Below the pieces are notes generated by a model. The model was given only the letters and a program-made list of their open reading frames with translations, ran no database searches and was not told the DNA's origin. This document shows, in pieces, positions 688 through 34,816 of a stretch of DNA of 64,000 bases. Position 1 is the stretch's first letter; each line of letters begins with the position of its first letter. The position numbers and the translations under genes were made by a program. Source of the stretch: Candidatus Heimdallarchaeum aukensis (lineage in GTDB: Archaea > Asgardarchaeota > Heimdallarchaeia > Heimdallarchaeales > Heimdallarchaeaceae); NCBI GenBank assembly GCA_021513695.1, contig CP084166.1, positions 1,120,001 through 1,184,000 on the forward strand, read 5' to 3'.

Positions 688-1677
688 TTAAGGTATAAGT
701 CCCCAGAAAAAGGCTTCCAAAAGTTTTGTTTTGAACTCTTTAGTTGTAGAGTAACAGGAAGAGAAGAAAGCTACATTATCGAGTATATCTTGCAAATTGC
801 TGAAAAATGCACCATATTCTACACTTAGCTTTTCAATATCGACGTTATAACGAATCAATACACCTATTTTCTTCAAGTTCTTTTTCTTAAGCAATGAATC
901 CTTGAGTGATTGATATTTCTCTTTCATGATGTCTAGCATCAACAAGAGAACTTCTTGTTCATTAGCAATATCGCTATCAATCTCTTCTAAAGGAATAATT
1001 GAAAACTGGAAAGTTTTAGTTTTTATTATTCCTACCTCATCTTCAAATTTAACAAAGGTAAAAGGTAATGTTAAGAGCAAAGAGGCGAATGAGTTCTTTA
1101 TCTTTTCAACTTCTTTCTTTGAGTAAAGTAGAGCTATTTTTTTAACTTTAGTTTTAAATAATCCTTTACTAATAAGTTCTTTTAGTTCTTGAGTAAGAAG
1201 ATTTGCTTGTGAAACACTTAACAACTCTCTTACAATCCTTTCATATTCGTTAACAATACTTGTCAATAGTTTTTCATCTACTTGATCAATAGATTTAATG
1301 TTATGAAACTTATAAATGAGCAATTTAGCAAACTCTTCTCTAAAATCATCTATTTTGCTTACTATTTCAGGAACAAGACACAATAACAATCCTATGGTTT
1401 TCTTTTTCATTCTTTTATCTTGCATCGTAGGATCGTCAACTAGGAAAGAAAACGCATATTGAACAAATCCTTCAGAGAAGGCAAAAGGGAATGGTCCATA
1501 CAGTTCAGAAGATATTTCATCAATGTCAACTACACCTTGAAAAACAAGTGAATAGGTCATAGCTCCAGAGAACTCAAACTTATCTATTATCTCTTCTTCA
1601 AATTGAGTCTCTTCAGATGTTACCATTTGAGTTAATGCTGGACCTATATCTTCAAGTTTAAACAATGCTATAAGCAT
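688..1677 (-). CDS. Hypothetical protein (329 aa), N-terminal alpha/beta module followed by a helical region
   Basis: Long ORF with coding-like composition. I recognise no confident family; see the finding on a possible longin/uDENN-like N-terminus. Confidence 0.6.
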   Translation of the reverse strand: MLIALFKLEDIGPALTQMVTSEETQFEEEIIDKFEFSGAMTYSLVFQGVVDIDEISSELYGPFPFAFSEGFVQYAFSFLVDDPTMQDKRMKKKTIGLLLCLVPEIVSKIDDFREEFAKLLIYKFHNIKSIDQVDEKLLTSIVNEYERIVRELLSVSQANLLTQELKELISKGLFKTKVKKIALLYSKKEVEKIKNSFASLLLTLPFTFVKFEDEVGIIKTKTFQFSIIPLEEIDSDIANEQEVLLLMLDIMKEKYQSLKDSLLKKKNLKKIGVLIRYNVDIEKLSVEYGAFFSNLQDILDNVAFFSSCYSTTKEFKTKLLEAFFWGLIP

Positions 1678-2000
1678 AATTATAACTATTTAAAAAAGAA
1701 TATTAAAACTTTACATATGCTTGACCTGTCTGTTTACTCAATAGACCTAGGTTACACTTTTGGGCACTAGAGAAACACAGAGGTGATTCATAAGTTTTTT
1801 TCCAGGAGTAGGGAGGTTAAGAGACTAGTGAAGGAGACTAAAATTGTAGTAAGAGCGGTAGAAGGAGAGGTCGGGGGAGCAGTAGGTTAGTCCTAGTCTT
1901 TTCGCTCACGGATGATCATTTACCCTCGTAACCCACTTTCTATTTGTTTGTTACCAACGTAGGTAGAGTAAATAGTTCAAAGAAATAAGGCTTTTATTAA

Positions 2001-2041
2001 ATAGAGAATCTTTTAGACTATTCTCTATGTAAAAAAAAAAG
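2001..2041 (-). terminator. Candidate terminator of the LVIVD-repeat gene: T10 tract followed by a 9-bp-stem hairpin
   Basis: On the minus strand a T10 run (2031-2040) starts 5 nt after the stop. It is followed by ATAGAGAAT/ATTCTCTAT inverted repeats (2001-2009 / 2020-2028). Archaeal termination uses oligo-T tracts. Confidence 0.45.
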
Positions 2042-2045
2042 AAAA

Positions 2046-4817
2046 TTAATTCTTTTTTCTCTTTAGGACTGCTAAGCTAAAGAATGAAAGAATAGTAATA
2101 GTAATAAGAGGATGAAAACTTAAAATCATTGTATTATCATTCGAGGTCGTATTTTCATCTTGGGATTCAACAACTTCAAAAGAATAATAGTTTCCATTAT
2201 TATCTGCAATGGCTTCATTTGGATTAGCAGCAATGTCTACAGCTTTGATATAATATTCTACATAATCTCCAGCGTCTAGAGGACTTAACGTTTTAGTATA
2301 GAGATATCCATCGGAAGAACTCATTGATTTAGCATCCCAAGCTCCACCATTAATTCTTATATAGAGTGTAACTGAAGCGATACCAACATTATCTGTAACC
2401 TCTGCAGAAATTTTTACATAATCTTGAGATGTTGGATTTGAAGGGCTATGAAATACATTTTGGATTGTAGGTTTTTGAGTATCTGGTTCTAATACGGTAA
2501 AAGAGTAATATAGACCATCGTTGTCGTAGGTAATTGTGTTGGAATTTTCTGAATTATCAGCACAAGTAATATAATAATCTATTTTCTCATTTGCTAAAAA
2601 TGATCCTATGTTTTTTGTAAATTTGTTCTGAATTTGAGAATCCACTTCCATTTGTGCTTCATTCCAGGCTGAACCATCAACCCGATAGTACAAAGTAACT
2701 GAAGCTATTCCTGAAGCATCTTCTAAATAAGCTAGAATAGTAACATTTTGACCTTCAAAAGGATCAGCTGGACTATGAGTTATTTCTACAAGCTCAGGAG
2801 GAGTAGAATCTGGTAAAAGTTCAAAGATAGATAGACCAAAAGTTTTCGAACCTACATATACCATTGAATTATTTACAAAAATTGTATCACATTGAGCATA
2901 TCCACCATATTCCCAACCTAAGGAATTGGAACTAGCAATCTTTTCAAGATTTGAAGGGTCAACAGTGACATTAAAGACTTCTAAACCATATCTGAAAGAA
3001 GTTACATAGAGTAGGCCATTTTTATAATAGAAATTAGACGGATAATAATCTGTAAATTCTTTTAGCTTCATTATACTAGTTATATTTGATATATCAAACA
3101 CTTTGAATGATGACCCACATGCAAGATAAAGGTAGTTTCCAACTATTTTAAAGTTAAGAGTATTCTCATTATCGGAGAAATATGATAACACTTGAGGATT
3201 ATATAAATCAGAAACGTTTACGAAAACTAATTCATTGTAATCGTAATACCTGCTTCCAAGAACAACTATATCCCCATATTTATCTATGTCAGTTAAAATC
3301 GCAGAAGATACGCTTATTGAAGAGATTTCGTATGGGGTAGTTGGTTCTGTCATGTTAACAATAAGCAGTTTACCATCTTCGTCAGATACTAAGAATCCAA
3401 TGCCATTTTCAACTACGATATCTTTAATTCTTTTGTGTGTTCCTACAAATTGTCCTATTTTATTTGGACTAAGAGGGTCTGTGATATTCAAAATATCTAT
3501 TCCATCCCAAGATTTTGCAATATAGGCTCTATCATCCTCAACCTCTAGTGCAAAAATCTCTCGATACATACCTTCATTAGTTAAGTATTGAGAAATTATT
3601 TTTGGAGATGAGGGATTTATAACATCAATAAATGTGATATCACCTTCTCCATTTGCGACAACAACATTTGATTTATAAGTAGAAATATCAGTAATCCAAC
3701 CCCATTGGGTAGTAATATCTAAGAGCTCTGGATTGTATATATCGGTAACATTAACTGTTATCAATCCTCCTCCCCCTCCAGCGATGTATGCAAATTGTTG
3801 ATTATATACAATAAGGTCATTAATTCTATTGTATTTAACATTACAACTTGAAATTAAAGTAGGATTCGAAAGAACAGATACATTAAACAATCTCATATCC
3901 ATGTAAGTACAAGTAACATAAAGAATCTGATTTTCAAGGTAAAGCCCCGTCATTCCTGCATAAGGTTCAGAATACTCTCCGATCTTTACGGGATTAGATG
4001 GATTTGTACAATCTAGAATAATGAGATGATCTTGTCTGTCTGCAATATATACGATATCATTATCCGCAATGACATCACAAGCATAACAATTATAAGTTGC
4101 TAATAAAGCTGGTGATGAGGGATTTGAGACATCAAAAATTTTCACGCCTAAATTTTGATCCGCGGCAAATATAGTTGAACCTTCACCTGTGATACTTTGA
4201 GGAAATTCAAAATTACTTGTCATTGCAAGAAATTCAGGATATTGGGGATCAGAAATATCATAAACACAAAGACCTTTGTTAACATCAGTTATATATGCAT
4301 ATGAATCATTTAGATATATAGAAGTGGGTCTTTGTAAACTCGATTCAGAAGCAATGAGTTGTGGATTAGCTAAATCAGTTGACATATCTAGTACAATCAA
4401 TCCCTTTCCATCAACAACTAAGTAAGCATAAGGATAGTCAATCTTTACATCTAAGACACGACCATCAAAATCTAATTCATTAGAGATCGTAGGGTGAATT
4501 TCATTTTCAATATTGAAAATAGTTAATCCCCTTGCATCATTAGCAGCATAGATGTAGTTTCCATATTGTTCAATTGAAATTGTTGTACCTTTGTAATAAG
4601 TAGATAAGTGATTTAGTTCCCGTTTAGGTGCATTTTTTTGTTTTTCAATGTCTTGAAGTTTTATCGTTGTTTTATCTTGTTCCATGCTTGCTCCATCCGT
4701 CAATTTAACTAATTTGGAAGTTTCATCCAACAAATTATTATTTAAATTAGATCCAATAACAAAAATGAAGCTTAAAGCAATTAATTTATAGATTTGGTTC
4801 TTTTTTATAGTTTTCAT
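2046..4817 (-). CDS. Secreted LVIVD-repeat beta-propeller protein with two tandem Ig-like modules and a C-terminal membrane anchor (923 aa)
   Basis: The N-terminus looks like a signal peptide. There are at least 11 LVIVD-type repeats (GLIVLDMS, GLCVYDIS, VKIFDVSNPSSP, LIILDCTNPSNP, ITFIDVINPSSP, IDILNITDPLSP, LLIVNMTEPTTP...). Two ~105-aa paralogous modules follow (..GIASVTLYYRVDG.. / ..GIASVTLYIRING..), then a terminal TM helix plus KRKKN. Confidence 0.8.
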   Translation of the reverse strand: MKTIKKNQIYKLIALSFIFVIGSNLNNNLLDETSKLVKLTDGASMEQDKTTIKLQDIEKQKNAPKRELNHLSTYYKGTTISIEQYGNYIYAANDARGLTIFNIENEIHPTISNELDFDGRVLDVKIDYPYAYLVVDGKGLIVLDMSTDLANPQLIASESSLQRPTSIYLNDSYAYITDVNKGLCVYDISDPQYPEFLAMTSNFEFPQSITGEGSTIFAADQNLGVKIFDVSNPSSPALLATYNCYACDVIADNDIVYIADRQDHLIILDCTNPSNPVKIGEYSEPYAGMTGLYLENQILYVTCTYMDMRLFNVSVLSNPTLISSCNVKYNRINDLIVYNQQFAYIAGGGGGLITVNVTDIYNPELLDITTQWGWITDISTYKSNVVVANGEGDITFIDVINPSSPKIISQYLTNEGMYREIFALEVEDDRAYIAKSWDGIDILNITDPLSPNKIGQFVGTHKRIKDIVVENGIGFLVSDEDGKLLIVNMTEPTTPYEISSISVSSAILTDIDKYGDIVVLGSRYYDYNELVFVNVSDLYNPQVLSYFSDNENTLNFKIVGNYLYLACGSSFKVFDISNITSIMKLKEFTDYYPSNFYYKNGLLYVTSFRYGLEVFNVTVDPSNLEKIASSNSLGWEYGGYAQCDTIFVNNSMVYVGSKTFGLSIFELLPDSTPPELVEITHSPADPFEGQNVTILAYLEDASGIASVTLYYRVDGSAWNEAQMEVDSQIQNKFTKNIGSFLANEKIDYYITCADNSENSNTITYDNDGLYYSFTVLEPDTQKPTIQNVFHSPSNPTSQDYVKISAEVTDNVGIASVTLYIRINGGAWDAKSMSSSDGYLYTKTLSPLDAGDYVEYYIKAVDIAANPNEAIADNNGNYYSFEVVESQDENTTSNDNTMILSFHPLITITILSFFSLAVLKRKKN

Positions 4818-5006
4818 TTATAAAGCACCATTCGTGTACTATTCTATGTTAAATAAATTAGATTATAAAAATATTATGGAAAACTAAATAGTTAAAATGT
4901 TCTATATTTTTTTCTTCATTTGAATATGTTATTATTTTCTTCCACATGTTTCTGTTGGTTAAAATTGCCTTTATAAAAAAGAAAATGAGTGAATATTTAT
5001 CATAAA

Positions 5007-6029
5007 CTATTTTTTCTTTTTCATCAAAATCCATGAAGTCAATGAAAGTAGTATTAGAGAGAAAATAGCACCAATGAACGGAAATGAAGCACTCTCTGCT
5101 AAATTTTCTGGATTTTGAAGTGCATAAATATCATATTCAATTAATGAAATATATGAAGTTAATCCAAAAGCTGGTAACAATGGTGACAAAGAAGCAATTT
5201 TCGCTCCTGTTTCGCTCACAATCTGACTTATTACATTTGCATCAAATTGTGGTTGAACAACAATAGTTTTCACATTTTCTTCTTTCATCTCATTTATTAC
5301 ATTCTGTATATGCTCGGGACTGGGCTCTGTTTCATGTTGTTCTTCAATTATTGCAACTCTTTCAATACCTAAAAGATCAAAAAGATACATAAAAGAGGGG
5401 TGATGTACAACAACTTTCATTCCTTCAACTTCAGGTCTGTATTCATCATTTATTCTTTTTATTAAGTCATCAAGATCATACAGATAGTTATCTCTATTAG
5501 AGAGGTATTTTTCTTCATTTTCAGGGTCTAAGGAAATAATTGTTGTAGTAATATTTTTCACAAAACTTTTTGCATATATTGGACTCATCCATACATGAGG
5601 ATTAAGAAAACTCTCATCTGCTGCAGGATCCTCTCTCATTATACTCTCATTAGCCAATGTAATAACTACCAAATTAGGATTATCTTCTAATATTGAATCC
5701 ATAGCTGAAGAAAGCCAAGATTCTAGTCCTTCTATCCCTAAACGTATGAGAACATCTGCTTCTGAAAGCAATTCTCGTTCTTGAGTAGTCATTTCATATG
5801 TATGAGGATCTTCAAGACCAGAAACAATAGAGATAGGAGTGAACAAACCTTTCCCAATTTCATAAGCCCAATTTTGTACTATACCTATAGTTGTAACGAC
5901 GTTTAAAGTGTCATTAGGGTCAAATTCTTGTTTTTGCAGTGCTAAAGCGAGATTCCTCTCAGTATTAAGATTTGCGAACATTAACGCTGTGAAGAATAAG
6001 AGAAAAGCCATCATTCTTTTTTTATTCAT
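5007..6029 (-). CDS. Metal (Zn/Mn/Fe) ABC transporter substrate-binding protein, ZnuA/TroA family, with C-terminal TM anchor
   Basis: N-terminal signal/TM, the NPHVWMSP motif typical of the ZnuA/TroA family, and a neighbouring permease, ATPase and DtxR-type regulator. C-terminal hydrophobic helix plus KKKK. Confidence 0.8.
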   Translation of the reverse strand: MNKKRMMAFLLFFTALMFANLNTERNLALALQKQEFDPNDTLNVVTTIGIVQNWAYEIGKGLFTPISIVSGLEDPHTYEMTTQERELLSEADVLIRLGIEGLESWLSSAMDSILEDNPNLVVITLANESIMREDPAADESFLNPHVWMSPIYAKSFVKNITTTIISLDPENEEKYLSNRDNYLYDLDDLIKRINDEYRPEVEGMKVVVHHPSFMYLFDLLGIERVAIIEEQHETEPSPEHIQNVINEMKEENVKTIVVQPQFDANVISQIVSETGAKIASLSPLLPAFGLTSYISLIEYDIYALQNPENLAESASFPFIGAIFSLILLSLTSWILMKKKK

Positions 6030-9468: not shown

Positions 9469-10728
9469 ATGAATGAGAAAATGAGGAAAAAGGTGTGGCG
9501 AACTGAGGAAATATGGGGGAAAGAATCGATCACTCTAAAGCAGTTGGCACACCAGGTAAAAAACTTGTATAATCAAGCAAATTACATTATTAAGTATCAG
9601 TTAAGAAAAAGTAAATATTTCACGAGAGAGTTCGAACTGATGAATATTTTAAGGTATCACCCGACCTACACAGCACTACCTGGTCATACGGCACAACAGA
9701 CGATAAAGTTTCTATGTTTAGCGTGGAAAGGGTATTTTAGGTCTTTAGAAGAATGCAAAAAAGAACCAGAAAAGTTTAATGGTAAACCCCGTCCTCCAAA
9801 ATAGAAGAAGAAAGATGGACTTGCTATAATCTATTTTACTAACTCTCAAGTGAAAATTAAAGAAGAAAAAGAGCAAGAAAAAGAAAAATTTTTTATCTCT
9901 TTCCCTAAACGTGTAGGACTAAAGATAGTTACAAGACTGTGTCCTTCAACGAAAGTGAAGTTTGCCCGTCTTATACCTATGGGAACGAAATTTAAATTAG
10001 AGATAGTTTACGAGAAAGAGATAGAAGAACGAAAAAAACGACATGCAGAAAGAGTTCTAGCTCTTGATCTGGGAGTGAATAACCTTGTAGGCGGGTTAAC
10101 CACTATTCCTGGTGAAAAAGGTTTTCTGATAAATGGTAGACCCATTAAAGCTGTTAATCAGTGGTTTAATAAACGTAGGGCAAAATTACAGTCAATCTAT
10201 GACAAGCAAGGATTAAACACCTGGGGAAGAAAAATGCTTACTCTCCAGTTAGAACGAATGTGTAAAATAGCTGACTATTTCCATAAAGCAAGTAGGAAGA
10301 TAATAGACTACTGTTTAGAAAAAAACATTGATACGATAGTTATAGGTTACAACCCCAGATGGAAACAGAAAGTGAATATGGGAAAGAAAAATAACCAAAC
10401 CTTTGTTTTTATCCCCTTTAAATCCCTCATTGATAAAATCACTTACAAAGCAGAAGAAAAAGGGATAAAAGTTATTCCTACCGAAGAGTCCTACACCTCT
10501 GTCTGCAGTTTCTTAGATAATGAAGAGATAGCTTTTCACCCCCATTATGCTGGCAAAAGAACTCACCGTGGACTGTTCATCAGTACCAGAGGATTAAAAA
10601 TTAATGCTGATATCAACTCTGCAGGTAATATCGGTCGCAAAGTATTCCCCACGTTATTCTCTGTTATGTTTAACTACGGGATAGTCTGGGCTGCAGTGGT
10701 TCACCCCGTCCGTTGGAAAATAAGTTAG
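9469..10728 (+). pseudogene. tnpB: tnpB interrupted by one in-frame TAG (9802-9804); tracked as two ORFs, 9469-9804 and 9850-10728
   Basis: Both tracked ORFs are in the same frame (start coordinates both = 1 mod 3). The sequence reads ...GKPRPPK*KKKDGLAIIYFTNSQVKIK... with no other stop. RuvC motifs are intact (ALDLGVNNL, TEESYTS, NADINSAGNI). The read-through length of ~419 aa is typical for TnpB. Confidence 0.8.
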
Positions 10729-10802
10729 CAAGTTAAGTTAGTCCAGCTCTTATGCTGTTCTTTCTCTTTCTTTTTTTCCACCGACTAAACTTCCTCCTCC
10801 TT

Positions 10803-10823
10803 CCGATTTTTAATCTAAATCGG
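10803..10823 (+). repeat. Right-end subterminal hairpin of IS copy B (CCGATTTT-TAATC-TAAATCGG)
   Basis: Same hairpin as 640-660, with one change at the loop-proximal base pair. Confidence 0.6.
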
Positions 10824-10860
10824 AATTTAGGAAAAAGTAAACCATGATTTTTTTTAAGAA

Positions 10861-27496: not shown

Positions 27497-27571
27497 TGGT
27501 AGTCCCCAGGAGATTTGAACTCCTGCCCCCGGATCCAGAGTCCGGGATCCTTGCCACTAGACTAGGGGACT
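27497..27571 (-). tRNA. tRNA-Gln (anticodon CUG), CCA encoded
   Basis: Folded by hand. 7-bp acceptor stem (AGTCCCC/GGGGACT, A1-U72), anticodon stem CCGGA/TCCGG with loop CT-CTG-GA, T arm AGGAG-TTCAAAT-CTCCT, discriminator A plus CCA. Confidence 0.9.
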
Positions 27572-27606: not shown

Positions 27607-27681
27607 TGGTAGTCCCCAGGAGATTCGAACTCCTGCCACCGGATTCAAAGTCCGGAATCCTTGCCGCTAGACTAGGGGACT
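27607..27681 (-). tRNA. tRNA-Gln (anticodon UUG), CCA encoded
   Basis: Same cloverleaf as the neighbouring gene, with anticodon loop CT-TTG-AA. 35-nt spacer between the two genes. Confidence 0.9.
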
Positions 27682-27868
27682 TTTTATCTTAACTATTAGT
27701 CTTCTGTCGATTCTTTTTTTTAATTGTGTTTTAAACTTTTCTTTATCTACTATGCTTTATAAACTATTAAATTTTTTTGATTTTTTTCGACTTTTTTCTT
27801 TTTTTCTTTCTCTCATTCTTTTTCCTTATCAAAAAATAAATAAGAGTAAACTTACATTTTATATTATT

Positions 27869-29266
27869 ATGCTTATAAAAACTGGTATTAATGAGCTTGA
27901 CCAGATGATTGATGGTGGTTTACGTACCCATTATTGTTATTCTATCAAGGGTTCTGCTGGTGCTGGTAAGACTGTTTTATCTATTTTTCTTGCTTGGGGT
28001 GCTCTCAATCAGGACATCCCTGTTGTTTTTATTAGTACTGAGATTGAACCTGATCGTATTATTCATTATTTTCACTCTTTTGGTCTTCCTGTTGAGGACT
28101 ACATTGACCGAGGGTTATTAGTCATTGATAAGATGTCTTTGAAGTCTTCTGGTGAGGAGATTATCCAGACTAACAGTTTTGATTTATCAGGTATTATTTT
28201 ACGTGTTACTAAGAAGATTGAGCGTATTCGAGCTAAGTTGGTTATTTTTGATTCTCTTTCTGCTTTTATTGCTGACTTTGAGTATAAAGACACTGCCCGT
28301 AGTAAGTATATTGATTTTATTAAGCGCATTACTAGTTTAGATACTTCTTTAATTATTACTATTGAGTGTGACCCTATTACTAGCAGTTCTCAGATTGACT
28401 ATTTAGTTGACGGTGTTATTGCTTTAAAGACCGAATTAATCAACAATCAGCTAATCAAGAAGATTTCTGTTCCTAAATTAAGAGAAGCCAAGCCTTTAGT
28501 TTATGAAAACCGTTATACTATTACTCAGAAAGGTTTTAGGATTTTCAAATCTGAGAGCGAGCCTTTGTTTACCGTTGATCGTTCTACTGGTATTAAGGTT
28601 TTGGACAATCTTTTAGGTGGAGGTATTGCTCGAGGTTCTGTTGTTTTAGTTGAGATCAATGGTGAGATTAATTATTTTCCTTTCTTCTTGACTCTTCTTT
28701 ACAATTATTTAACTCTAAACCATGGTGTTATCATTCATTCCAATGTTCAGATGAATGTTAATCGTATTTTGGAGGAGTTTGAGCGAGGTCAGTGTGACAT
28801 TTCTGACTACTTACGTGATGGTAATATTGTCTTTTTGGATAAGTACAATCGTTCTGTCACTGCTGTTGAAGCTAAAGAGATTCGTGATATGATTAACTTA
28901 GATGACATGTTAGCTATTACTGTTGAGATGATGCAGGCTTTTGGTTCTGACACTGAAGTTGTTGTTTTTGGTGATCTTACTGATGATGTTAACATTTTGA
29001 ATGAGCGTGATTTCTTAAAATTGTTTGCTCTTCAGTCTTACAACATTAAGGAGCATAATGCTATTTCCTTTTCTTTTATCAATTACAATGCTGTTGACAA
29101 AAAAATTCTCGCTCGTTTACGTACCACCTCTGATGTTATCATTCGTTTATCGCGTGAAAATTATTCTAACTACATTGAATGTTTGAAGAGCACTACTGGT
29201 GCTACATTTCTTGCTAAGAATATTGAATTTAAAAAAAGTTATCCTATGATTGAAATTGTTGAGTGA
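27869..29266 (+). CDS. Two-domain KaiC-like (RecA-superfamily) ATPase; second domain lacks a P-loop
   Basis: Domain 1: TGINELDQMIDGGLRTHYCYSIKGSAGAGKTVLS (Walker A) ... LVIFDS (Walker B). Domain 2: TGIKVLDNLLGGGIARGSVVLVEINGEINYFP, with no GK[ST]. Start moved to Met40 of tracked ORF 27752-29266, because the upstream part is T-rich low complexity. Confidence 0.75.
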   Translation: MLIKTGINELDQMIDGGLRTHYCYSIKGSAGAGKTVLSIFLAWGALNQDIPVVFISTEIEPDRIIHYFHSFGLPVEDYIDRGLLVIDKMSLKSSGEEIIQTNSFDLSGIILRVTKKIERIRAKLVIFDSLSAFIADFEYKDTARSKYIDFIKRITSLDTSLIITIECDPITSSSQIDYLVDGVIALKTELINNQLIKKISVPKLREAKPLVYENRYTITQKGFRIFKSESEPLFTVDRSTGIKVLDNLLGGGIARGSVVLVEINGEINYFPFFLTLLYNYLTLNHGVIIHSNVQMNVNRILEEFERGQCDISDYLRDGNIVFLDKYNRSVTAVEAKEIRDMINLDDMLAITVEMMQAFGSDTEVVVFGDLTDDVNILNERDFLKLFALQSYNIKEHNAISFSFINYNAVDKKILARLRTTSDVIIRLSRENYSNYIECLKSTTGATFLAKNIEFKKSYPMIEIVE

Positions 29267-31373
29267 GGAAGTATTATGCACAAGATTTTATACTTCAAGA
29301 GCAAAACTTGTAACTGGTGTCCTTTTGTCGAATCGATTTTAAAGAAGATTGTTTCTGAAAAATCTACTTTAGAGTTAGAAGTTATTGATATTGAAGAAAA
29401 TTATGAAATCGCTGAAAAGTATAATATTATCGCTGTTCCTACTATTATTCTTCCTAACTCTACTAAAATTGTTGGTGCTACCGATGAAACTTTTCTACGC
29501 CAGCAGTTATCATTTTTTTTGTGATTGGTGAGAACTGCTTTCTTTTTGTTCTTTTTTTTGGTAAATTGTTTTTTTCGTTCTTTAATTCTACTTTCATCTC
29601 TATAAGAAAACTCTTTAAATTCTTTTCTTTTTTGTAAATTAATGACTTGGTCCTTAAATGATTCAAAGCTTATCTATGGTGTTGATCAAAACGATCTTTA
29701 TTTTTTAGATATTAATGATCAAGGTGAACTTTTACTTAAGCTTAAGGATCAATCTATTTCTTTTAATGAAATCATCAATCTTGTTAAGTCTCAGTTTAAC
29801 TCTTCTTCTCTCTCTTCTGTTCCTTCATTTACTCTTCGCATTCCTCAATTAATAACTGAACAAATTTCCAAACTTAACACTTGTTTCCAGTCTGCTATTC
29901 ATCAATATCAATATTCTGGCAATTTTCAAGGCATCTATCCTATTAAAGTTAATTCTTTGAGTTATGTTCTTGAAACTATTAAAGCGAACAGTCCTTCCTA
30001 TGCTTTTGAAGCTGGAACTGTTAATGAATTAGATGTTTTGCTTTCTCTTCTTCGTGATGATAAAACTCGTATGATAATGTGTAACGGTGTTAAAGATTCA
30101 GACTATATAGATAAGATTAGAGGAGCTCTTAACGATGGTTATTCTATTGTTATTAGTTTGGAGTCATGCTCTGAGTCTACTACCATTCTTGATTTAATAG
30201 ACCATGATTTACTTAAACTTGCTTTGAGAATCAAACCCTATCCCACTGTTAAATCTCATTGGGGAAGTTCTTCTGGTCGCGATTCTAAATTTGGTTTATC
30301 TATTCATGAATTTAAGCGCATTATTAATTTGTTAGAAAAAAGAGGAGTAAAGGATAAAGTTATTGCTATTCACGCTCATCCTGGTTCTCAGATTATTGAT
30401 ATTGATGGTTTAAGGTTCTTTGTTCTGTATCTTTCAAACAGGTATTTAGAACTTAAGCGTCTTGGTTTCACCAACCTTAACAATATAGACTTTGGTGGAG
30501 GTATACCTATTAATTATGATAATAGGTTACCCTCTGACATTTTAGATAATTATGTTAAAACGCTTGTATTAACTCTAAAAGAGACTATCACCGATTCTGA
30601 CGTTCAACCTAATATTTGGATTGAAGCAGGAAGGTTTCTTACTGCTCCCTCTTCCTTAATTATTGTTGAAACTATTGCTCTTTACTCTATTTTCCCCTCT
30701 GAAGAGAGTTTAAATGACCATAAGGCTATGATTAGCTCAATGCTTGAAAAAATCACTCATCCTTCTTCGATACTTAATTTATTTTCTCATTGGACTGAAT
30801 TACAATCTCCTACAATCGACTCAAATGTTAACGAAATCTTGAAGACTGAAATTTTGATGAAACACTTAAAATTAGCTATCAGAGAAAAAATGATGAATTT
30901 TGATGATGAGCAAAAGTTCAACAGGATTTTTGATTTAGATTTGGATGAGATATTCTATGAGATTTATTCCCCTGAACATATCTTAATCGGTAATTTCAGT
31001 GTTTTCAATACTATTATTGATTGGTTACTTGTTGGTCAATATTTTCCTATTCTTCCTATAGACAATCTTGATCATCAACCTGTTTCTTTAGCTAGATTGG
31101 TGGATAAAACATGTGATTCTGATGGTGAGATATCTATTTACCATCCTGTCTTTAATGAAGAAAAGATTTTGTATACCAAGGATGGTTTTCCATTAACAGT
31201 CAAAGACAAGAAATTTAATCTCATGGGCTTTCCTATTGGTTGTTTGCCTACTAATTTCCCATATTATTTAGTTATTGCTTTAACAGGTGCCTACCAAGAT
31301 AACATTAAGATGCATCACAATCTAATTGAGCCATTAAGTAGTATTATTATCAAGCATGAGAATGGGCAGTGGA
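28374..31373. repeat. Tandem direct duplication, unit 1 (3,000 bp)
   Basis: Sequence lines 28381-29520 are identical to 31381-32520 at offset 3000. After two homopolymer indels the offset becomes 3002, and identity continues to 31373/34375. Confidence 0.9.
29276..29524 (+). CDS. Small thioredoxin/glutaredoxin-fold protein (CNWC active-site motif)
   Basis: 82 aa. KSKTCNWCPF (CxxC) and a cis-Pro context (IAVPTIIL) are typical of the thioredoxin fold. Confidence 0.75.
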   Translation: MHKILYFKSKTCNWCPFVESILKKIVSEKSTLELEVIDIEENYEIAEKYNIIAVPTIILPNSTKIVGATDETFLRQQLSFFL

Positions 31374-32266
31374 CTATTACTAGCAGTTCTCAGATTGACT
31401 ATTTAGTTGACGGTGTTATTGCTTTAAAGACCGAATTAATCAACAATCAGCTAATCAAGAAGATTTCTGTTCCTAAATTAAGAGAAGCCAAGCCTTTAGT
31501 TTATGAAAACCGTTATACTATTACTCAGAAAGGTTTTAGGATTTTCAAATCTGAGAGCGAGCCTTTGTTTACCGTTGATCGTTCTACTGGTATTAAGGTT
31601 TTGGACAATCTTTTAGGTGGAGGTATTGCTCGAGGTTCTGTTGTTTTAGTTGAGATCAATGGTGAGATTAATTATTTTCCTTTCTTCTTGACTCTTCTTT
31701 ACAATTATTTAACTCTAAACCATGGTGTTATCATTCATTCCAATGTTCAGATGAATGTTAATCGTATTTTGGAGGAGTTTGAGCGAGGTCAGTGTGACAT
31801 TTCTGACTACTTACGTGATGGTAATATTGTCTTTTTGGATAAGTACAATCGTTCTGTCACTGCTGTTGAAGCTAAAGAGATTCGTGATATGATTAACTTA
31901 GATGACATGTTAGCTATTACTGTTGAGATGATGCAGGCTTTTGGTTCTGACACTGAAGTTGTTGTTTTTGGTGATCTTACTGATGATGTTAACATTTTGA
32001 ATGAGCGTGATTTCTTAAAATTGTTTGCTCTTCAGTCTTACAACATTAAGGAGCATAATGCTATTTCCTTTTCTTTTATCAATTACAATGCTGTTGACAA
32101 AAAAATTCTCGCTCGTTTACGTACCACCTCTGATGTTATCATTCGTTTATCGCGTGAAAATTATTCTAACTACATTGAATGTTTGAAGAGCACTACTGGT
32201 GCTACATTTCTTGCTAAGAATATTGAATTTAAAAAAAGTTATCCTATGATTGAAATTGTTGAGTGA
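29642..32266 (+). CDS. Chimeric ORF created by the duplication junction: SpeA-like residues 1-577 fused in frame to the C-terminal ~297 aa of the KaiC-like protein
   Basis: aa 1-577 are identical to ORF 32644-34401. From TITSSSQIDYLVDG onward the sequence is identical to the C-terminus of ORF 27752-29266. The junction is at nt 31373/31374. Confidence 0.7.
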   Translation: MTWSLNDSKLIYGVDQNDLYFLDINDQGELLLKLKDQSISFNEIINLVKSQFNSSSLSSVPSFTLRIPQLITEQISKLNTCFQSAIHQYQYSGNFQGIYPIKVNSLSYVLETIKANSPSYAFEAGTVNELDVLLSLLRDDKTRMIMCNGVKDSDYIDKIRGALNDGYSIVISLESCSESTTILDLIDHDLLKLALRIKPYPTVKSHWGSSSGRDSKFGLSIHEFKRIINLLEKRGVKDKVIAIHAHPGSQIIDIDGLRFFVLYLSNRYLELKRLGFTNLNNIDFGGGIPINYDNRLPSDILDNYVKTLVLTLKETITDSDVQPNIWIEAGRFLTAPSSLIIVETIALYSIFPSEESLNDHKAMISSMLEKITHPSSILNLFSHWTELQSPTIDSNVNEILKTEILMKHLKLAIREKMMNFDDEQKFNRIFDLDLDEIFYEIYSPEHILIGNFSVFNTIIDWLLVGQYFPILPIDNLDHQPVSLARLVDKTCDSDGEISIYHPVFNEEKILYTKDGFPLTVKDKKFNLMGFPIGCLPTNFPYYLVIALTGAYQDNIKMHHNLIEPLSSIIIKHENGQWTITSSSQIDYLVDGVIALKTELINNQLIKKISVPKLREAKPLVYENRYTITQKGFRIFKSESEPLFTVDRSTGIKVLDNLLGGGIARGSVVLVEINGEINYFPFFLTLLYNYLTLNHGVIIHSNVQMNVNRILEEFERGQCDISDYLRDGNIVFLDKYNRSVTAVEAKEIRDMINLDDMLAITVEMMQAFGSDTEVVVFGDLTDDVNILNERDFLKLFALQSYNIKEHNAISFSFINYNAVDKKILARLRTTSDVIIRLSRENYSNYIECLKSTTGATFLAKNIEFKKSYPMIEIVE

Positions 32267-34375
32267 GGAAGTATTATGCACAAGATTTTATACTTCAAGA
32301 GCAAAACTTGTAACTGGTGTCCTTTTGTCGAATCGATTTTAAAGAAGATTGTTTCTGAAAAATCTACTTTAGAGTTAGAAGTTATTGATATTGAAGAAAA
32401 TTATGAAATCGCTGAAAAGTATAATATTATCGCTGTTCCTACTATTATTCTTCCTAACTCTACTAAAATTGTTGGTGCTACCGATGAAACTTTTCTACGC
32501 CAGCAGTTATCATTTTTTTTGTGATTGGTGAGAACTGCTTTCTTTTTTTTGTTCTTTTTTTGGTAAATTGTTTTTTTCGTTCTTTAATTCTACTTTCATC
32601 TCTATAAGAAAACTCTTTAAATTCTTTTCTTTTTTGTAAATTAATGACTTGGTCCTTAAATGATTCAAAGCTTATCTATGGTGTTGATCAAAACGATCTT
32701 TATTTTTTAGATATTAATGATCAAGGTGAACTTTTACTTAAGCTTAAGGATCAATCTATTTCTTTTAATGAAATCATCAATCTTGTTAAGTCTCAGTTTA
32801 ACTCTTCTTCTCTCTCTTCTGTTCCTTCATTTACTCTTCGCATTCCTCAATTAATAACTGAACAAATTTCCAAACTTAACACTTGTTTCCAGTCTGCTAT
32901 TCATCAATATCAATATTCTGGCAATTTTCAAGGCATCTATCCTATTAAAGTTAATTCTTTGAGTTATGTTCTTGAAACTATTAAAGCGAACAGTCCTTCC
33001 TATGCTTTTGAAGCTGGAACTGTTAATGAATTAGATGTTTTGCTTTCTCTTCTTCGTGATGATAAAACTCGTATGATAATGTGTAACGGTGTTAAAGATT
33101 CAGACTATATAGATAAGATTAGAGGAGCTCTTAACGATGGTTATTCTATTGTTATTAGTTTGGAGTCATGCTCTGAGTCTACTACCATTCTTGATTTAAT
33201 AGACCATGATTTACTTAAACTTGCTTTGAGAATCAAACCCTATCCCACTGTTAAATCTCATTGGGGAAGTTCTTCTGGTCGCGATTCTAAATTTGGTTTA
33301 TCTATTCATGAATTTAAGCGCATTATTAATTTGTTAGAAAAAAGAGGAGTAAAGGATAAAGTTATTGCTATTCACGCTCATCCTGGTTCTCAGATTATTG
33401 ATATTGATGGTTTAAGGTTCTTTGTTCTGTATCTTTCAAACAGGTATTTAGAACTTAAGCGTCTTGGTTTCACCAACCTTAACAATATAGACTTTGGTGG
33501 AGGTATACCTATTAATTATGATAATAGGTTACCCTCTGACATTTTAGATAATTATGTTAAAACGCTTGTATTAACTCTAAAAGAGACTATCACCGATTCT
33601 GACGTTCAACCTAATATTTGGATTGAAGCAGGAAGGTTTCTTACTGCTCCCTCTTCCTTAATTATTGTTGAAACTATTGCTCTTTACTCTATTTTCCCCT
33701 CTGAAGAGAGTTTAAATGACCATAAGGCTATGATTAGCTCAATGCTTGAAAAAATCACTCATCCTTCTTCGATACTTAATTTATTTTCTCATTGGACTGA
33801 ATTACAATCTCCTACAATCGACTCAAATGTTAACGAAATCTTGAAGACTGAAATTTTGATGAAACACTTAAAATTAGCTATCAGAGAAAAAATGATGAAT
33901 TTTGATGATGAGCAAAAGTTCAACAGGATTTTTGATTTAGATTTGGATGAGATATTCTATGAGATTTATTCCCCTGAACATATCTTAATCGGTAATTTCA
34001 GTGTTTTCAATACTATTATTGATTGGTTACTTGTTGGTCAATATTTTCCTATTCTTCCTATAGACAATCTTGATCATCAACCTGTTTCTTTAGCTAGATT
34101 GGTGGATAAAACATGTGATTCTGATGGTGAGATATCTATTTACCATCCTGTCTTTAATGAAGAAAAGATTTTGTATACCAAGGATGGTTTTCCATTAACA
34201 GTCAAAGACAAGAAATTTAATCTCATGGGCTTTCCTATTGGTTGTTTGCCTACTAATTTCCCATATTATTTAGTTATTGCTTTAACAGGTGCCTACCAAG
34301 ATAACATTAAGATGCATCACAATCTAATTGAGCCATTAAGTAGTATTATTATCAAGCATGAGAATGGGCAGTGGA
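31374..34375. repeat. Tandem direct duplication, unit 2 (3,002 bp)
   Basis: See unit 1. The only differences I found are T5->T8 and T8->T7 runs in the trx-speA spacer (~29547-29560 vs ~32547-32562). Confidence 0.9.
32276..32524 (+). CDS. Small thioredoxin-fold protein, duplicate copy
   Basis: Identical translation to 29276-29524. Confidence 0.75.
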   Translation: MHKILYFKSKTCNWCPFVESILKKIVSEKSTLELEVIDIEENYEIAEKYNIIAVPTIILPNSTKIVGATDETFLRQQLSFFL

Positions 34376-34401
34376 ATGTTTTATATTATAGAGATAAATA
34401 A
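32644..34401 (+). CDS. PLP-dependent arginine/ornithine decarboxylase, SpeA-like (fold-III Orn/DAP/Arg decarboxylase)
   Basis: GIYPIKVNS (PLP-Lys context as in SpeA YPIKVN), IHAHPGSQI, DFGGGIPINY, CDSDGE. The 585-aa length is close to biosynthetic arginine decarboxylases. Confidence 0.75.
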   Translation: MTWSLNDSKLIYGVDQNDLYFLDINDQGELLLKLKDQSISFNEIINLVKSQFNSSSLSSVPSFTLRIPQLITEQISKLNTCFQSAIHQYQYSGNFQGIYPIKVNSLSYVLETIKANSPSYAFEAGTVNELDVLLSLLRDDKTRMIMCNGVKDSDYIDKIRGALNDGYSIVISLESCSESTTILDLIDHDLLKLALRIKPYPTVKSHWGSSSGRDSKFGLSIHEFKRIINLLEKRGVKDKVIAIHAHPGSQIIDIDGLRFFVLYLSNRYLELKRLGFTNLNNIDFGGGIPINYDNRLPSDILDNYVKTLVLTLKETITDSDVQPNIWIEAGRFLTAPSSLIIVETIALYSIFPSEESLNDHKAMISSMLEKITHPSSILNLFSHWTELQSPTIDSNVNEILKTEILMKHLKLAIREKMMNFDDEQKFNRIFDLDLDEIFYEIYSPEHILIGNFSVFNTIIDWLLVGQYFPILPIDNLDHQPVSLARLVDKTCDSDGEISIYHPVFNEEKILYTKDGFPLTVKDKKFNLMGFPIGCLPTNFPYYLVIALTGAYQDNIKMHHNLIEPLSSIIIKHENGQWNVLYYRDK

Positions 34402-34465
34402 AACAGATAATTTTATAAACAGTTGTTTTTCATTATCATTCGACCATTTAAAAGAGGACCATTTA

Positions 34466-34816
34466 ATGAGCATGCGAGAATCTATTGTTAAAACGTTAAA
34501 AGAAATAAAAGATGAATATAGAGAAGTTGAGACTACAGACAAAATTTTAGATCTAATCAGTTTAGTTGGTATTGTACTCTTCTTTGTAAGTGCGTTAGTA
34601 ATGAGTTTGAACAATAAAATTAATCCTATCAACATTGCTTTCTCTATCTATCCATTAGCTATTGCTGGTACTGCTACTGCTATACGAATGAAACTTAAAA
34701 AGATAACCAATGAAGAAGAAGCCTCTAGAGTTTTTAGAGAATACATAACAATTGTTAGTTTATTAACAGTATTAGTATTAATTGTGATTTTATTTACTGT
34801 AATAATTTATGTTTAA
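34466..34816 (+). CDS. Small membrane protein (3 predicted TM helices)
   Basis: ATG 34466 chosen within tracked ORF 34358-34816, whose 5' end overlaps speA. Hydrophobic segments follow a charged N-terminus. Confidence 0.5.
   Translation: MSMRESIVKTLKEIKDEYREVETTDKILDLISLVGIVLFFVSALVMSLNNKINPINIAFSIYPLAIAGTATAIRMKLKKITNEEEASRVFREYITIVSLLTVLVLIVILFTVIIYV

Follow-up and report, generated by a model that had tools for sequence, protein, structure and literature searches.

Spontaneous tandem duplications and amplifications of the chromosome are well known in bacteria from work on Salmonella and Escherichia coli and from the innovation-amplification-divergence model, and chimeric genes that form when the breakpoints of a duplication fall inside genes are a classic route of fusion-gene birth, as in the jingwei-type cases of Drosophila. 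A locus of this kind may also be compared with the false duplications produced by genome assembly through untrimmed overlaps, mis-resolved loops or consensus errors. In the present study, we analysed a window of 64,000 nucleotides (nt) from the genome of the Asgard archaeon Candidatus (Ca.) Heimdallarchaeum aukensis PM71 (GenBank contig CP084166.1, positions 1,120,001 to 1,184,000 of the forward strand; all coordinates given below are those of the window), in which a segment of 3.0 kb occurs twice, head to tail. The segment extends from the interior of a gene for a KaiC-like two-domain ATPase (kaiC-like), across a small thioredoxin-fold gene, to a point just before the end of a gene for a SpeA-like decarboxylase dependent on pyridoxal 5′-phosphate (PLP) (speA-like), and an in-frame chimeric open reading frame (ORF) spans the point where the two copies meet.

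The locus resembles the bacterial tandem duplications in its identical head-to-tail copies, in breakpoints that lie in unrelated sequence, in the intact genes found at its boundaries and in its single novel join-point. It differs from them in its setting, an Asgard archaeon from an enrichment metagenome, and in having no flanking repeats, insertion sequence (IS) elements or microhomology at the join. Like the jingwei-type fusions, it combines in frame the 5′ part of one gene and the 3′ part of another while the parental copies are kept; unlike them, its fusion was found in no other genome searched, and the 3′ partner starts inside the core of a domain. With false assembly duplications it shares the identity of the copies, differences that are confined to homopolymers and absence from relatives, but the graph of an independent short-read assembly branches exactly at both boundaries, and the genome was built from Illumina reads first. 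In our opinion, the locus is probably a real and very recent head-to-tail duplication of 3.0 kb of the chromosome, present in the sequenced PM71 population and made by a homology-free join.

The repeat unit and its junction

Global alignment showed that the unit of 3000 nt (copy 1, Table 1) recurs head to tail, directly downstream, as a segment of 3002 nt (copy 2). There are no substitutions between the two copies and only two indels, both of them in T-runs of the spacer between the thioredoxin-fold and speA-like genes: copy 1 reads T5 (29543-29547) and T8 (29552-29559), and copy 2 reads T8 (32543-32550) and T7 (32555-32561). Identity ends sharply at either boundary, with 0 nt of common sequence past each of them, and a search for microhomology, direct repeats and inverted repeats linking the two breakpoints found none. 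The only other long repeat in the window is a pair of IS605/TnpB copies, which are 91% identical. With two adjacent head-to-tail copies of nearly complete identity and one novel junction, the arrangement is that of a tandem duplication.

At the junction, between positions 31373 and 31374, the 3′ region of the speA-like gene is joined bluntly to the interior of the kaiC-like gene, GGGCAGTGGA being followed directly by CTATTACTAGC, and the two are in phase. The 5′ breakpoint of the unit corresponds to codon 169 of the kaiC-like gene and is situated within the RecA-like core of domain 1, at approximately position 159 of the 231 positions of the Pfam profile PF06745. The 3′ breakpoint lies 8 codons ahead of the speA-like stop codon and also, at 34375/34376, within the first codons of a downstream ORF of 152 amino acids (aa); this ORF is intact only after copy 2. 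An earlier reading of this DNA, made from the letters alone (hereafter, the sequence-only reading), had described the 3000/3002-nt tandem repeat, its two homopolymer differences (T5/T8 as against T8/T7), a unit comprising the 3′ part of the kaiC-like gene, the thioredoxin-fold gene and the first 577 codons of the speA-like gene, and an in-phase junction giving an 874-aa fusion with intact parental genes on either side. The alignment and the ORFs agree with that description in each of these respects.

A plausible course of events would start from the ancestral order kaiC-like, thioredoxin-fold, speA-like. Breakpoints at the two positions given above would have delimited a segment whose end was joined to its own start without homology, to give the order kaiC-like (intact), thioredoxin-fold, speA-like(1-577)::kaiC-like(170-465), thioredoxin-fold, speA-like (intact). 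Such a join would be illegitimate and independent of homology, and might have come about, for instance, by a template switch during replication or by end-joining between sister chromosomes. The new arrangement would then probably have spread and persisted by drift or through a bottleneck, or by virtue of a gene-dosage benefit, as H. aukensis increased its share of the enrichment culture from 0.03% to 4-7% (Wu et al., 2022; PMC8813620).

Evidence from the deposited and an independent assembly

The duplication, including the chimera, is already present in the public genome of Ca. H. aukensis PM71, as exact protein matches show, while the paper describing that genome makes no mention of a duplication, of KaiC or of arginine decarboxylase (Wu et al., 2022; PMC8813620). 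According to the same paper, Illumina PE150 reads of H. aukensis were assembled with metaSPAdes, the assembly was taken through two rounds of LRScaf with Nanopore reads, and the genome was polished with pilon at 346x, this Illumina-first route being the one chosen when Nanopore reads were few or short. The Nanopore libraries were prepared from DNA amplified by multiple displacement amplification (MDA), and MDA is stated only for these libraries; the Illumina library was made with the NEBNext Ultra kit. Because the genome was built Illumina-first, with no long-read consensus, the suspicion voiced in the sequence-only reading that the repeat could be an error of long-read assembly or polishing is not justified for the complete repeat. 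It may hold for the T-run differences, and the copy-2 allele alone is still suspect.

Independent evidence was obtained from Logan, in which each run of the Sequence Read Archive (SRA) is assembled separately with k=31, k-mers seen once are dropped, the graph is cleaned in a SPAdes-like manner and contigs of 150 bp or less are not reported (PMC12424806). In run SRR15988954, the locus is represented by three contigs, none of which shows a mismatch to the window. The first, _159 (17.6 kb), stops 30 nt inside the unit, at 28403 (unit start plus 29); the second, _9443, has a length of exactly 3000 nt and is identical to copy 1; and the third, _10170 (12.1 kb), begins at 34346 (unit end minus 29). 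For comparison, unitigs at k=31 were simulated for three versions of the locus. Two identical copies gave exactly the Logan coordinates and, in addition, a junction unitig of 60 nt, which is missing from Logan because it is below the reporting length, while a single copy gave one unbroken unitig. In a second run, SRR15988958, a contig begins exactly at 28374; a search of other runs for contigs starting at the 3′ break (34346) returned SRR15988954 only. The intact KaiC-like and SpeA-like proteins of H. aukensis, which span the boundaries, have no Logan source, while the thioredoxin-fold protein and the products of the flanking genes have one.

As the flanking contigs extend over 17.6 and 12.1 kb, breaks are rare, and two that match the unit boundaries to the nucleotide are not a matter of chance. 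Since the Logan contigs break where the simulation of a repeat breaks, an alternative join is present in the reads at either end of the unit; this is indirect evidence for the join, obtained independently of the deposited assembly, and the join is abundant enough to survive graph cleaning. The recovery of the unit as a graph contig means, moreover, that its round length is a feature of the sequenced DNA, and the length of 3000 bp, which had been listed as a sign of artefact, loses that significance now that an independent assembler yields the same unit from raw reads.

Two other candidates were considered and rejected. A software constant behind the exact figure of 3000 nt is contradicted by the unit being a graph contig in an independent assembly and by the presence of the chimera in GenBank. 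An inversion or deletion polymorphism is contradicted by the flanking contigs, which extend 30 nt into the unit, so that the flanks are unbranched.

That the junction existed in no cell, and was created by a chimeric molecule in the library or by a fault in assembly or scaffolding, is in our view highly improbable. Such an origin would fit the round length of the unit, the zero substitutions, the lack of microhomology, the restriction of the differences to homopolymers and the absence of the duplication from all relatives examined and from the JGI contigs, as well as the preparation of the Nanopore libraries by MDA, a procedure that produces chimeras. However, a different assembler recovers the 3000-nt unitig from the raw reads, with breaks exact to the boundary in SRR15988954 and, for the 5′ boundary, again in SRR15988958. 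With single k-mers dropped and low-coverage links cleaned away, a sporadic chimera should not break contigs covered 346x; no MDA is stated for the Illumina library, and the assembly is not a long-read consensus. The boundaries of an artefact would be expected to have no counterpart in an independent assembly, and these are reproduced to the nucleotide. Of the two options offered by the sequence-only reading, a recent duplication or an artefact, the boundary breaks and the simulation thus favour the former and disfavour the latter.

It should be noted that several points weigh against a chromosomal tandem duplication in the form deposited. What the graph reveals is that each unit end has an alternative join, and not which partners are joined; the signature would be the same for two tandem copies, for more than two, for a mixed population, for a circle together with one copy and for a dispersed second copy. 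That the copies are exactly two, and in tandem, is taken from the authors' assembly, and Logan and the authors share the same Illumina data, so that the software is independent while the library is not. A perfect tandem repeat of 3 kb should be unstable because of homologous recombination, and a join without microhomology is less usual among spontaneous duplications. Finally, the deposited T8/T7 allele of copy 2 predicts, in the simulation, a unit contig split into a piece of 1174 nt, a bubble and a piece of 1821 nt, but the actual Logan unit contig has the copy-1 allele and shows no break.

On these grounds, the junction might be real and the deposited structure nevertheless not the true majority structure, the cells containing instead a minority subpopulation with the duplication, at least three copies, an excised 3-kb circle or a dispersed copy, which the assembler, in traversing a loop, or else the scaffolder would have rendered as a tandem of exactly two copies. 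Two copies are the minimum path that uses every edge of such a graph. A de Bruijn signature, as said, shows only that the graph branches at the two unit ends, Nanopore reads long enough (more than 6 kb) to fix the copy number may have been scarce, given that such reads were few or short and came from MDA libraries, and the copy-2 T-run allele lacks the support of the Logan contig. We nevertheless consider this unlikely: the survival of the junction through the SPAdes-modelled cleaning of Logan argues against a very rare variant, the boundaries show no resemblance to a site at which recombination would cut out a circle, and in the assembly the two copies abut cleanly at the junction, with no residual contig overlap. 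A tandem duplication in the chromosome is retained as the preferred reading.

As regards the copy-2 spacer, the T8/T7 allele is absent from the Logan contig and from all the related contigs that cover the spacer, every one of which shows the gap-free copy-1 arrangement. The allele could have arisen by slippage after the duplication, its bubble having been popped in the Logan graph, or, more likely, it is an error of assembly or polishing. A change of +3 and -1 inside 20 nt (32543-32561) is odd for slippage and for polishing alike.

The chimeric reading frame and its parental genes

The features of the locus are collected in Table 1.

Table 1. Duplicated units, junction and genes of the locus, in window coordinates.
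Feature	Position	Strand	Accession / locus tag	Remarks
Duplicated unit, copy 1	28374-31373	+		3000 nt; ancestral-type T5/T8 spacer allele; identical to Logan contig SRR15988954_9443
Duplicated unit, copy 2	31374-34375	+		3002 nt; derived T8/T7 spacer allele (32543-32561)
Novel junction (31373/31374)	31344-31403	+		Equals the 60-nt junction unitig predicted by simulation
KaiC-like two-domain ATPase gene, intact	27869-29266	+	UJG41780.1, K9W45_04785	465 aa; PF06745, 147.5 bits; exact GenBank match
Thioredoxin-fold gene, copy 1	29276-29524	+	UJG41781.1	82 aa; CNWC motif; Pfam Thioredoxin_3, 41.6 bits
Chimeric ORF	29642-32266	+	UJG41782.1, K9W45_04795	874 aa; SpeA-like 1-577, hybrid codon, KaiC-like 170-465
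Thioredoxin-fold gene, copy 2	32276-32524	+		Identical to copy 1
SpeA-like PLP-dependent decarboxylase gene, intact	32644-34401	+	UJG41784.1, K9W45_04805	585 aa; PF02784; exact GenBank match
Downstream ORF	34358-34816	+		152 aa; no Pfam or NCBIfam family match; same gene called in relatives

In the chimera, residue 578 is encoded by a hybrid codon (A from one partner, CT from the other) and is Thr, where KaiC has Pro, and residues 579-874 are residues 170-465 of the KaiC-like protein. The sequence-only reading had described the second partner as the P-loop-less second KaiC-like domain; domain 2 is indeed included, but ahead of it stand the last 60 or so residues of domain 1, which is RecA-like and whose Walker A and B motifs have been left behind. 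Judging from these motifs, and from a domain 2 that has no P-loop of its own, the KaiC part of the chimera cannot be an ATPase by itself; starting as it does inside the RecA-like core, it is likely to be poorly folded. The SpeA part, on the other hand, is retained through the conserved Trp577 and loses just the final 8 residues. The frame is uninterrupted and is preceded by the native speA-like upstream spacer, with a TATA-like element (TTTAAAT, 29614-29620) located about 22 nt 5′ of the ATG, i.e. by a plausible promoter. Expression of the chimera is thus plausible, and the promoter-like region and the retention of every conserved SpeA element suggest that the protein may be made and may still act as a decarboxylase.

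With breakpoints in two genes that share a strand, the tandem duplication produced the chimeric ORF automatically, as a by-product, and the prior for an in-phase joining of the two is one in three. Neither conservation nor recurrence of the fusion was found in other genomes or populations: each of the best 120 homologues covers at most 69% of the chimera, and the junction, searched for with one degenerate position allowed, gave 0 matches in JGI metagenome contigs, a result that is uninformative for PM71 itself. The birth of a new gene, which the sequence-only reading had proposed in the event of a real duplication, is not shown by these data.

A special case of the real duplication would be an adaptive one, in which the duplication arose and reached high frequency during the nine-month ethane enrichment because the chimera is functional, with SpeA tethered to KaiC-like hexamers, or because a higher dosage of SpeA and thioredoxin was beneficial. 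Unstable tandem repeats, as known from bacterial amplifications, usually persist only under selection. The position of an in-frame chimera behind the native speA-like upstream region, the retention of SpeA through Trp577 and a junction abundant enough to outlast graph cleaning would all be in keeping with selection. Against it stand the absence of such a fusion among the homologues and of the junction from the JGI contigs, the fact that an in-phase join is a one-in-three event, and the probable poor folding of a KaiC part that has lost both Walker motifs; in addition, the bottleneck of enrichment accounts for persistence equally well. We therefore think selection a decidedly doubtful explanation, and prefer a duplication whose chimera is incidental.

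The KaiC-like protein resembles the KaiC-family double RecA-like ATPases (e.g. PDB 8zn5) in that its domain 1 aligns with KaiC CI. This domain has a Walker A motif at residue 28 and a Walker-B-like motif (LVIFDS) at residue 124. It differs from KaiC in domain 2 (GGGIARGSVVLVEINGEINY), which has no P-loop, and in a score of 144.7 bits against NF006799/TIGR02655, under the equivalog cut-off of 408. The protein thus belongs to the general KaiC-domain family PF06745 only, and does not qualify as a KaiC of the circadian-clock type. Its start codon is uncertain, as the mechanically called ORF begins at 27752, 39 codons upstream (27752-27868), and would encode 504 aa. A length of 465 aa is called for H. 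aukensis in GenBank and also by JGI and ENA, and one of 508 aa by NCBI in two related metagenome-assembled genomes.

The thioredoxin-fold protein scored 26.5 bits with the KaiB model of Pfam, slightly below the cut-off of 27, and was likewise under the cut-off of the NCBIfam model for MJ0307-family thioredoxins.

In the SpeA-like protein, the PF02784 domain (the PLP-binding barrel) scored 84.9 bits against a cut-off of 23.4. About 570 residues align with SpeA models, and the best PDB matches are arginine decarboxylases (3nzp, 3n2o, 3nzq). Unlike SpeA, however, the protein falls under the equivalog cut-offs of the NCBIfam SpeA models NF003763 and TIGR01273 (301.8 as against 369, and 283.5 as against 624.1, respectively), and 'SpeA-like' is for this reason the right name. 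Its C-terminus is also shorter than that of other Asgard homologues, by some 30-40 residues in Heimdallarchaeum, and ends just past the conserved Trp. The 3′ end of the speA-like gene and the start of the 152-aa ORF that follows it have 44 nt in common.

Relatives, genomic surroundings and significance

The sequence-only reading had suggested a comparison with sister genomes, and these proved to be single-copy. Two JGI contigs with about 97% nucleotide identity (L003 and L004) contain one unbroken copy each of the series kaiC-like, thioredoxin-fold, speA-like and downstream gene, crossing both boundaries, and in four further contigs (L006, L008, L009 and L010) the sequence is single-copy across the 5′ boundary. 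The single-copy order across both boundaries was also found in Ca. H. endolithica PR6 (L001), where no repeat is present, and in an ENA contig (L005); the SpeA-like protein is 81% identical to its relative in the complete PR6 genome. Since contigs of the same species and two sequences of sister lineages are single-copy, the duplication is recent and lineage-specific. On this comparison of sequences, it is a derived state known to date from the PM71 enrichment only.

The order kaiC-like, small thioredoxin-fold gene, speA-like (27869-34401) is kept across the Heimdallarchaeum lineages (L001, L003, L004 and L005). This conserved order may point to a functional link between a KaiC-like ATPase, a partner with a KaiB/thioredoxin fold and polyamine synthesis.

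As for the surroundings of the locus, two tRNA-Gln genes in tandem, with the anticodons CTG and TTG and 92% identity, are located on the minus strand just upstream of the kaiC-like gene, at 27497-27571 and 27607-27681. In contig L003, approximately 4.9 kb (729-5608) separate this pair from the kaiC-like gene, and the same holds for L006 and L008; the insert is missing from the window, at about 27786/27787. It contains four small ORFs, one of which encodes a leucine-rich-repeat protein, the rest being without a Pfam match, and no clear flanking repeat was seen. The insert may be a strain-variable island or a mobile element adjoining tRNA genes.

The IS605-family TnpB/OrfB gene that forms the other long repeat is found at 1-682 and 10170-10845. 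The two copies match the Pfam family OrfB_IS605 and the Cas12f1-like TNB family, and the first is truncated by the window edge. The pair is consistent with the many transposase families reported for the H. aukensis genome.

For curation, it follows that the 874-aa 'arginine decarboxylase' of the public H. aukensis genome and of UniRef is the product of a join-point and not a conserved protein, and that UJG41782.1 and the copy-2 spacer deserve a flag, the latter as a possible assembly error.

As a type of mutation, tandem duplication with a chimeric by-product is well known, and the PM71 event is a new example of it. By analogy with the bacterial cases, the duplicated state is probably polymorphic and unstable in PM71, and a dosage benefit is possible; the locus would accordingly offer a cheap test case for the dynamics of duplications in an Asgard enrichment culture. 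If the duplication is real, it represents a clean, datable structural mutation in the genome of a member of the archaeal group closest to eukaryotes, in which a single homology-free event would have given, at once, a spare thioredoxin gene and an in-frame chimera while leaving both parental genes intact.

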